From sequence record PP047753: 64,000 nt of DNA; one strand, given 5' to 3'. This stretch comes from Escherichia phage KEP3. Below the pieces are notes generated by a model. The model worked only from the letters and a program-made list of their open reading frames with translations, ran no database searches and was not told the origin of the DNA. Made by a program: the position numbers and the translations under genes. How positions within the stretch are numbered: the stretch's first letter is position 1; each line of letters opens with the position of its first letter. Shown in pieces: positions 56,369 to 57,009 of this stretch.

Positions 56369-56369
<1 letters not shown>

Positions 56370-56608
56370 TACATTTTTCCTGCTCTTCTAAGTTCGTTGT
56401 AAGCAATTTCCTCTTTATACGACCTCTGAATCTCAAGAAATTGTCTCAATGATAATAAATCAGAGAATGTCATAGCAAAGAGTTGGTCAAGTGTTTCTTT
56501 ACACCCTTCCATACCATAAATAGCAAGCACAAATTTCATCTCGTCTGCTTCTTCATAGGTTGCCTCTACAGCAGCATCAGTCAGTGGTGTCTGTAGAGTG
56601 TTACCCAT
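56369..56608 (-). CDS. tail assembly chaperone, -1 frame extension (GT-like C-terminal part)
   Basis: ORF in -1 frame relative to upstream chaperone ORF; reachable from slippery T_TTT_TTC without intervening stop. Confidence 0.55.
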
Positions 56609-56610
56609 GT

Positions 56611-57009
56611 TTACTGAGAAGTTAGGCTTTTGAAAATGCTTGCTTCGAAAAAACTTCCGAAGTTTGCCTCCAGCGCAAATGCTAAGTAATCAATAAATTC
56701 ACCGTAGTTTGCTTGGAAGTATGTATCAATATTAAGTGGGAAGTCATCAACAGTTGCCCCTTGAAATAACAGGGTAGCCATTTCTTCAAGATTAATTTCT
56801 TCAATTCTGTCAAAACAAGCTTCAACAAGTTCTTTAAATGGAACCATTGGAGCTTCTTTCTTATCTTTATCAGTCAGGCTTGACAGCATCTGTGCAAATG
56901 TTGGAACAACAATTTTACCCAACTTCATAGACATCTTAATACCATCTCTTGCCCCAAGCAGAACGATATTTACTTTCTTACCATTAATTACTCTAGATTC
57001 TGTTTTCAT
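56611..57009 (-). CDS. tail assembly chaperone (G-like)
   Basis: Located between tube and tape measure genes; contains in-frame slippery heptamer near 3' end. Confidence 0.6.
   Translation of the reverse strand: MKTESRVINGKKVNIVLLGARDGIKMSMKLGKIVVPTFAQMLSSLTDKDKKEAPMVPFKELVEACFDRIEEINLEEMATLLFQGATVDDFPLNIDTYFQANYGEFIDYLAFALEANFGSFFEASIFKSLTSQ
56647..56653 (-). other. programmed -1 ribosomal frameshift slippery heptamer T_TTT_TTC
   Basis: Heptamer in X_XXY_YYZ register of the 132-aa ORF; -1 frame runs 13 codons without stop into ATG of the 79-aa ORF. Confidence 0.6.

Follow-up and report, generated by a model that had tools for sequence, protein, structure and literature searches.

The window analyzed here, 64,000 nucleotides (nt) of Escherichia phage KEP3 (sequence record PP047753), comes from a Felix O1-like myovirus of the genus Felixounavirus, subfamily Ounavirinae, family Andersonviridae. 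Over the 1.6 kb around the locus of interest, Escherichia phage vB_EcoM_DE17 is 99.8% identical to the window, and about 210 Felix O1-like phages of Escherichia, Salmonella, and Shigella are at least 95% identical. Felix O1 has 22 tRNA genes according to the genome announcement of phage Mijalis (PMC5543628). ARAGORN finds no tRNA genes in the 64-kb window, and any tRNA cluster of this phage must be located outside it.

The minus strand of the window, to which all features below belong, carries a standard contractile-tail module. A sheath gene (57544..58896; DUF3383, phrog_205) is followed by a gene for a tail tube protein of the DUF3277/KPP10_Orf10 type (57082..57528; PF11681, phrog_280), two overlapping open reading frames (ORFs), the gene for a 742-amino-acid (aa) tail tape measure protein (54141..56369; Pfam TMP_3, 63 bits; phrog_4036, 1527 bits), and genes for Dit-like, plug, and hub proteins. 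The first of the two ORFs (56611..57009, with its stop codon TAA at 56613..56611) lies directly 3' of the tube gene and encodes a 132-aa protein that matches tail assembly chaperone families in both Pfam (PF21822, Phage_TAC_15; E = 1.2e-19, 71.5 bits against a cutoff of 22) and PHROG (phrog_1613; E = 8e-49). We refer to this protein as G, the short or TAC-N form, and to its reading frame as the zero frame. The second ORF, as usually annotated, begins with an ATG at 56608 and encodes 79 aa (56369..56608); its sole family match is phrog_4963 (E = 3e-55). With T denoting this downstream part, the gene order is tube, G, T, and tape measure. A reading made earlier from the sequence alone (the sequence-only reading) had taken a frameshift between the two ORFs as independent support for the tape measure assignment, and the frameshift does corroborate it, together with the tube and chaperone assignments.

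A strong intrinsic-terminator-like hairpin is located between the tube and chaperone genes (57042-57071, minus strand). It consists of 13 pairs followed by TTTTGTTTCT, with a T tail extending to about 57032, and is annotated as a terminator in the record of Salmonella phage Meda. This hairpin may cause the chaperone and tape measure genes to be transcribed less than the sheath and tube genes.

Slip site and −1 frame

The 132-aa ORF contains the slippery heptamer T_TTT_TTC near its 3' end (56653..56647, minus strand). As the sequence-only reading had noted, the heptamer is in the X_XXY_YYZ register; it falls within codons 119 to 121, AGT TTT TTC (S119 F120 F121). The protein ends in ...LEANFGSFFEASIFKSLTSQ*, and the corresponding zero-frame codons are GCA AAC TTC GGA AGT TTT TTC GAA GCA AGC ATT TTC AAA AGC CTA ACT TCT CAG TAA. 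The distance to the stop had been given as 13 codons, which is correct when the codon containing the first T is taken as the start of the count; 11 sense codons separate TTC from TAA.

The open stretch of the −1 frame starts 14 codons 5' of the heptamer and extends to 56372, followed by a TAA at 56371..56369 that overlaps the ATG of the tape measure gene (TAATG). After the slip it would continue with CGA AGC AAG CAT TTT CAA AAG CCT AAC TTC TCA GTA AAC ATG GGT, translating to RSKHFQKPNFSVN-MGNT..., and it thus enters the 79-aa ORF at its ATG as had been claimed, with this ATG read as an internal methionine codon. The computed −1-frame extension, or T part, occupies 56369..56647; its 92 codons begin with the C at 56647, which is read a second time, and extend to 56372, where the stop follows. 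Joined to the first 121 residues of G, it gives a predicted fusion of 213 aa (GT, or TAC-NC), in agreement with the earlier estimate of about 210 aa; the size of this product is derived from the sequence. All details of the sequence-only reading that could be compared with the sequence are correct. The predicted junction peptide is ...EANFGSFFR, and its zero-frame counterpart is ...EANFGSFFEASIFK. A search of the PDB by sequence with the predicted fusion identified no similar solved structure.

How much the heptamer means on its own can be gauged from the rest of the window. The 64 long ORFs (17,715 codons) contain 66 in-frame X_XXY_YYZ heptamers, a density at which chance alone would place about 0.1 in the 26 codons over which the −1 frame is open. 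By itself, then, the heptamer is only mildly unlikely by chance and is suggestive, not decisive; the evidential weight comes from its conservation in relatives rather than from the heptamer count. Two of the 66 heptamers have a −1 extension of at least 50 codons, both in the last 20 codons of their gene. The other one is A_AAG_GGG (53359..53353, minus strand), 2 codons before the stop of the Dit-like gene, from which the −1 frame enters the next gene (plug protein). Its motif is rated as efficient in E. coli. We considered it as a second slip site and rejected it: it varies within Felixounavirus (AAG AAG GAG in phage D1-2), it overlaps the ribosome binding site of the next gene, and its occurrence is most likely due to chance.

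Conservation in related phages and the search for stimulators

To assess conservation, we used 43 phage loci taken from GenBank records, IMG/VR contigs, and metagenome contigs and representing at least five lineages: Felixounavirus, Mooglevirus, Suspvirus, Kolesnikvirus (Erwinia phage phiEa21-4 and relatives), Yersinia phage P778, and four unclassified contigs. Three of the loci are from more distant metagenomic phages; the remainder, which are the window plus 39 relatives, contain 37 distinct G-T DNA sequences. The heptamer was read in about 40 of about 298 matching INPHARED records. Across this set, the identity of G to that of the window drops to 39 to 52%. The heptamer TTTTTTC is nevertheless present in the same register in all 43 loci, so that the slip site proposed from a single genome proves to be conserved in its relatives. 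The −1 extension is 92 to 95 aa long in every one of the 43 and always ends at the tape measure start.

Among 8 divergent representatives, the nucleotide sequences of the whole G-T region (641 nt) have an average pairwise identity of 0.56, and this value climbs to its maximum for the locus, 0.96, over the heptamer and about 20 nt past it. This conservation island (56625..56655, minus strand) codes in two frames, for FFEASIFK in the zero frame and RSKHFQKP in the −1 frame. The longest invariant run of the locus in these representatives, AGTTTTTTCGA, has the heptamer inside it. A blastn comparison with the Erwinia phages matched only a 41-nt island of both genes, at 92.7% identity. The two phenylalanine codons of the heptamer are invariant, whereas the adjacent phenylalanine codon alternates between TTC and TTT. 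Part of the nucleotide conservation at the site is due to coding in two frames and not to the signal itself. Indeed, FFEASIFK and RSKHFQKP each have a protein-level counterpart in the two Buttiauxella genes described below, and two-frame coding adequately explains the conservation of the 20 nt 3' of the heptamer.

Within a collection of 5.8 billion proteins, 92 homologues of G were found, all of them 124 to 136 aa long. None of the 92 is a single-ORF fusion spanning both G and T, which indicates that the two-frame layout is stably kept in phages. Another potential slip site, ATT_TTC (with the tetramer U_UUC), is located 12 nt downstream of the heptamer. It is kept in Ounavirinae, but it is replaced by ATC CTG or TTC CTG in three of the loci (L045 to L047) and is therefore not a feature of the family.

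The heptamer U_UU.U_UU.C belongs to an efficient class of −1 motifs in E. coli (H_HH.U_UU.Y), which gives more than 0.1% shifting without stimulators and is used by insertion sequence (IS) elements (PMC4066793). The sequence-only reading had suggested looking for a downstream stimulatory structure, and we detect none that is conserved: the consensus fold of ten divergent sequences has an energy of −0.44 kcal/mol and no covarying pairs. Folding of the 171 nt that surround the site in the window gave an unremarkable value (z = −1.68). With no conserved downstream hairpin or pseudoknot, the efficiency of frameshifting may be low. A hairpin at 56598..56564 (minus strand, CTCTACAG...CTGTAGAG) was considered as a stimulator and rejected as too far from the site (49 nt past it) and too weak. 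It lies in the 5' part of T, just past the ATG of the 79-aa ORF. Counterparts with paired synonymous changes (CCCCG/CGGGG or CCCCA/TGGGG) are found in Mooglevirus and Suspvirus, and the hairpin is absent from the Yersinia and Erwinia lineages; 68% of the alignment cells pair and there is essentially one covarying pair, which makes for weak evidence overall.

On the 5' side, a Shine-Dalgarno-like GGAGG (56667..56671, minus strand) precedes the heptamer by 13 nt, within the range of 6 to 17 nt given for stimulators of this kind (PMC4066793). GGAGG is present in Felixounavirus, Mooglevirus, some Suspvirus, and two further contigs (L045 and L047), and absent from the Erwinia phages, Yersinia phage P778, L037, and L046. 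As it is missing from about half of the lineages, it is an auxiliary, lineage-specific element at most. In the enterobacterial lineages, this putative stimulator may aid the slip.

The downstream reading frame and an in-frame Buttiauxella homologue

Two nucleotides separate the G stop codon of the window from the ATG of the 79-aa ORF, and the 18 nt before this ATG contain no Shine-Dalgarno sequence. In a Felixounavirus contig (L018; IMGVR_UViG_3300045988_004167), this ATG is replaced by ATA and the −1 frame is still open. The L018 genome is otherwise near-identical to the window, and the ATA likewise sits 2 nt after the G stop. In L037, an IMG/VR contig, and in Erwinia phages (L006 and L039), the first possible start occurs only at codon 37 to 57 of the conserved domain. 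The only start candidate of the T frame in Yersinia phage P778 is a TTG; in this phage the −1 frame is open for only 40 nt ahead of the G stop, and the heptamer lies within these. Further, the −1-frame peptide encoded 5' of the window's ATG (RSKHFQKP) is conserved. These comparisons suggest that the 79-aa ORF is most likely the 3' part of GT rather than a separate gene. For the family, the start codons compared speak clearly against independent translation of T; in the window genome, with its ATG, some independent translation may occur.

A different arrangement of the same parts occurs on the chromosome of Buttiauxella noackiae (JPRU01000001.1, 1022942-1029322; L044), which carries the same module of chaperone, TMP_3 tape measure, and Dit-like genes. 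A short chaperone gene (positions 3001-3381 of this locus; 126 aa) is followed directly by a separate in-frame gene of 201 aa (3381-3986), which we designate G'-T. The 126-aa chaperone is 46% identical to G of the window and retains the residues GSFF; its codons for SFF are TCA TTC TTC, and the slippery heptamer is thereby lost. In its N-terminal half, the 201-aa protein is paralogous to the chaperone (E = 7e-10), and its C-terminal half is homologous to the −1 extension of the window (E = 1e-7 for the T part alone). Compared with the predicted fusion, the 201-aa protein aligns from one side of the junction to the other (residues 81 to 208, E = 5e-13), where NFGSF--FRSKHFQKPNF of the window fusion is paired with NFGVFLSFVVKPFVKPDF of Buttiauxella and RSKHFQKP of the −1 frame is aligned with KPFVKPDF inside the in-frame protein. 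This alignment across the junction indicates, at the protein level, that a G-linker-T chain is a real polypeptide in the family. A comparison of the phage and Buttiauxella loci shows the slippery nucleotides to be kept only where recoding would be needed. The L044 element could be a prophage, a tailocin, or another type of element, and PHROG searches with seven genes upstream in it gave no matches.

Two further proposals arise from this comparison, and jointly we regard them as rather doubtful. One is that two interchangeable routes to the long form coexist in the Phage_TAC_15 family, with −1 recoding in the phages and a duplicated in-frame G'-T gene in Buttiauxella; if true, Buttiauxella and the phages would constitute a natural experiment on the gain or loss of recoding sites. 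The alternative is that the invariant 11-mer and the 20-nt island downstream of it might hold a structure-free stimulatory element beyond dual coding.

Proposed recoding and relation to known systems

The chaperone family, the gene order, the presence of the heptamer in 43 of 43 phage loci, and the in-frame Buttiauxella homologue all support the view, put forward in the sequence-only reading, that this is a conserved chaperone frameshift of the G/GT type. From this conserved architecture and its homology to a natural in-frame fusion, we consider it highly probable (about 0.88) that two chaperone forms, the 132-aa G and the 213-aa GT, are made through −1 ribosomal frameshifting at T_TTT_TTC. 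Most ribosomes would produce the short form and stop at the TAA at 56613..56611. A minority, with two tRNA-Phe on the UUU and UUC of U_UUU_UUC, would slip back by one base; both tRNAs would re-pair to UUU, and reading would resume at CGA AGC... in the −1 frame and continue through the 79-aa ORF. The output would be the long form, ending exactly at the tape measure start. We infer that the slip is ribosomal and proceeds without need for RNA structure. By analogy with phage lambda (PMC5009743), the shared G part would coat the tape measure and the T part would recruit the tube protein in the window's phage; neither G nor GT would stay in the virion, and a low, fixed ratio of GT to G would matter.

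The closest competitor to a ribosomal slip places the event in transcription. RNA polymerase adding one U at the T6 run would generate a minority mRNA encoding the same 213-aa protein, with an identical junction (SFF-RSK...), so sequence alone cannot separate ribosomal from polymerase slippage. A pattern scan lists a terminator-like hairpin with a T run at 56673..56647, and a nascent stem-loop is known to stimulate transcriptional slippage on a short motif (U5C4) in a Roseiflexus IS element (PMC5009743). The bacterial runs described in the same source are, however, about 9 A or T long, compared with 6 in the window, and related Pakpunavirus chaperone genes reportedly share only GTTTTT (PMC12846349). 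Nor does the upstream hairpin stand out: its fold in the window (−7.2 kcal/mol, z = −0.56 to −0.94) and in all 12 of 12 lineages (z = −1.1 to +0.6) is no better than that of shuffled controls, and its predicted pairs differ between lineages and are not homologous. We therefore rejected it as a slippage or terminator element. Finally, the X_XXY_YYZ register of the run and its final C are constant, which matters to ribosomes and not to a polymerase. On balance, transcriptional slippage appears quite improbable.

Two other readings dispense with recoding altogether. The 79-aa ORF could be translated as a separate protein by termination-reinitiation at TAA-AC-ATG, with the heptamer being incidental. 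The 2-nt spacing in the window would permit some independent reinitiation, and most GenBank records list two separate coding sequences. This reading is very improbable in light of the missing Shine-Dalgarno sequence, the ATA of L018, the lone TTG of P778, and the late starts of L037 and the Erwinia phages. Moreover, RSKHFQKP is encoded 5' of the ATG and yet is conserved and has a counterpart inside the Buttiauxella protein, and the heptamer is invariant, while the window's other 3'-terminal heptamer varies within the genus. Alternatively, the heptamer could have arisen by chance, without recoding, upstream of an ORF that is a remnant or unexpressed. The expectation of ~0.1 heptamers in the overlap zone leaves some room for such a coincidence; retention in 43 of 43 loci does not, and every lineage conserves T as a protein, with its end at the tape measure start in each case. 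The neutral evolution of T that a chance heptamer would entail is contradicted by these comparative data, which makes it scarcely plausible. Ribosomal frameshifting at the heptamer thus remains the preferred reading.

The frameshift is already known, having been annotated and published for close relatives of this phage, with annotation in the clade since 2014-2015. GenBank holds joined coding sequences for Salmonella phage Meda (AXY86324.1, 'Tape measure chaperone frameshift product') and Citrobacter phage Moogle (YP_009145710.1), and the fusions that we predict for these two phages match the entries exactly, with the junction ...GSFF|R.... Citrobacter phages Mijalis and Michonne have joined entries of the same kind. 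All four share the gene, the heptamer, and the junction (...GSFF|R(S/G)KHF...) with the window; Meda is 97.5% identical to it in DNA over the region, and the products differ at three residues. The genome announcements of Moogle (PMC4319497) and Mijalis (PMC5543628) mention the frameshift, and a 2025 paper on Pseudomonas phage Adele describes a poly-T motif at the 3' end of TAC-N as conserved in 231 Andersonviridae genomes (PMC12846349). Protein-level or reporter proof of the frameshift in Felix O1-like phages was sought in the searchable literature, and none was found.

The mechanism is the textbook G/GT strategy of lambda and involves no new biology. The slip site of lambda is G_GGA_AAG. Lambda and the window both have two overlapping ORFs directly 5' of the tape measure gene, and neither would depend on an obligatory RNA stimulator. 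According to the summary in PMC5009743 of the work of Levin (1993) and of Xu, Hendrix, and Duda (2004, 2013, and 2014), lambda makes a low level of GT; the part that GT has in common with G binds the tape measure, and the extension binds the tail tube. Lambda is, however, a siphovirus and the window's phage a myovirus, and we detect no sequence similarity to lambda G or T. Experiments have proven both products of lambda and the ratio in which they are made; for the window's phage, these are predictions.

The TAC-N/TAC-NC system of Pakpunavirus and Vandenendeviridae (phage Adele; PMC12846349) shares with the window the module type (DUF3383 sheath and KPP10_Orf10 tube), a poly-T motif at the 3' end of TAC-N, and an uninterrupted −1 frame, and in both cases the evidence is comparative. 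It belongs to a different family and infects Pseudomonas, and its invariant motif is GTTTTT, compared with the full T_TTT_TTC and its flanks here. For T4-like phages, a duplicated-gene solution is reported (Vladimirov, Gautam, and Davidson 2022, as described in PMC10885494). Going by that description, the Buttiauxella locus resembles the T4-like solution in having a short chaperone and a separate, longer in-frame gene with the extension. The window differs from it in that there is one G domain and only the −1 frame leads to T; a duplicated in-frame gene with a G-like part joined to T was sought in the window, and none was present.

The main value of these results lies in annotation quality. 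Most other records of the genus, including the RefSeq record of phage EC6, list two separate coding sequences, and a joined coding sequence would be correct where Felixounavirus and RefSeq records list the 79-aa ORF separately. Mildly new are the in-frame G'-T homologue of Buttiauxella, by which the junction is confirmed in protein sequence, and the absence of a conserved stimulatory structure. In existing records the 79-aa ORF goes by 'hypothetical protein', 'tail assembly chaperone', or even 'head closure protein'. Names are inconsistent for the two ORFs together, with 'head closure protein', 'Hc1 head closure', 'Tc1 tail completion', 'tail sheath protein', and 'tape-measure protein' among them. 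In addition, near-identical sequences are filed under Campylobacter phage A132 and Staphylococcus hyicus (WP_252560994.1), and these look like mislabelling or contamination.
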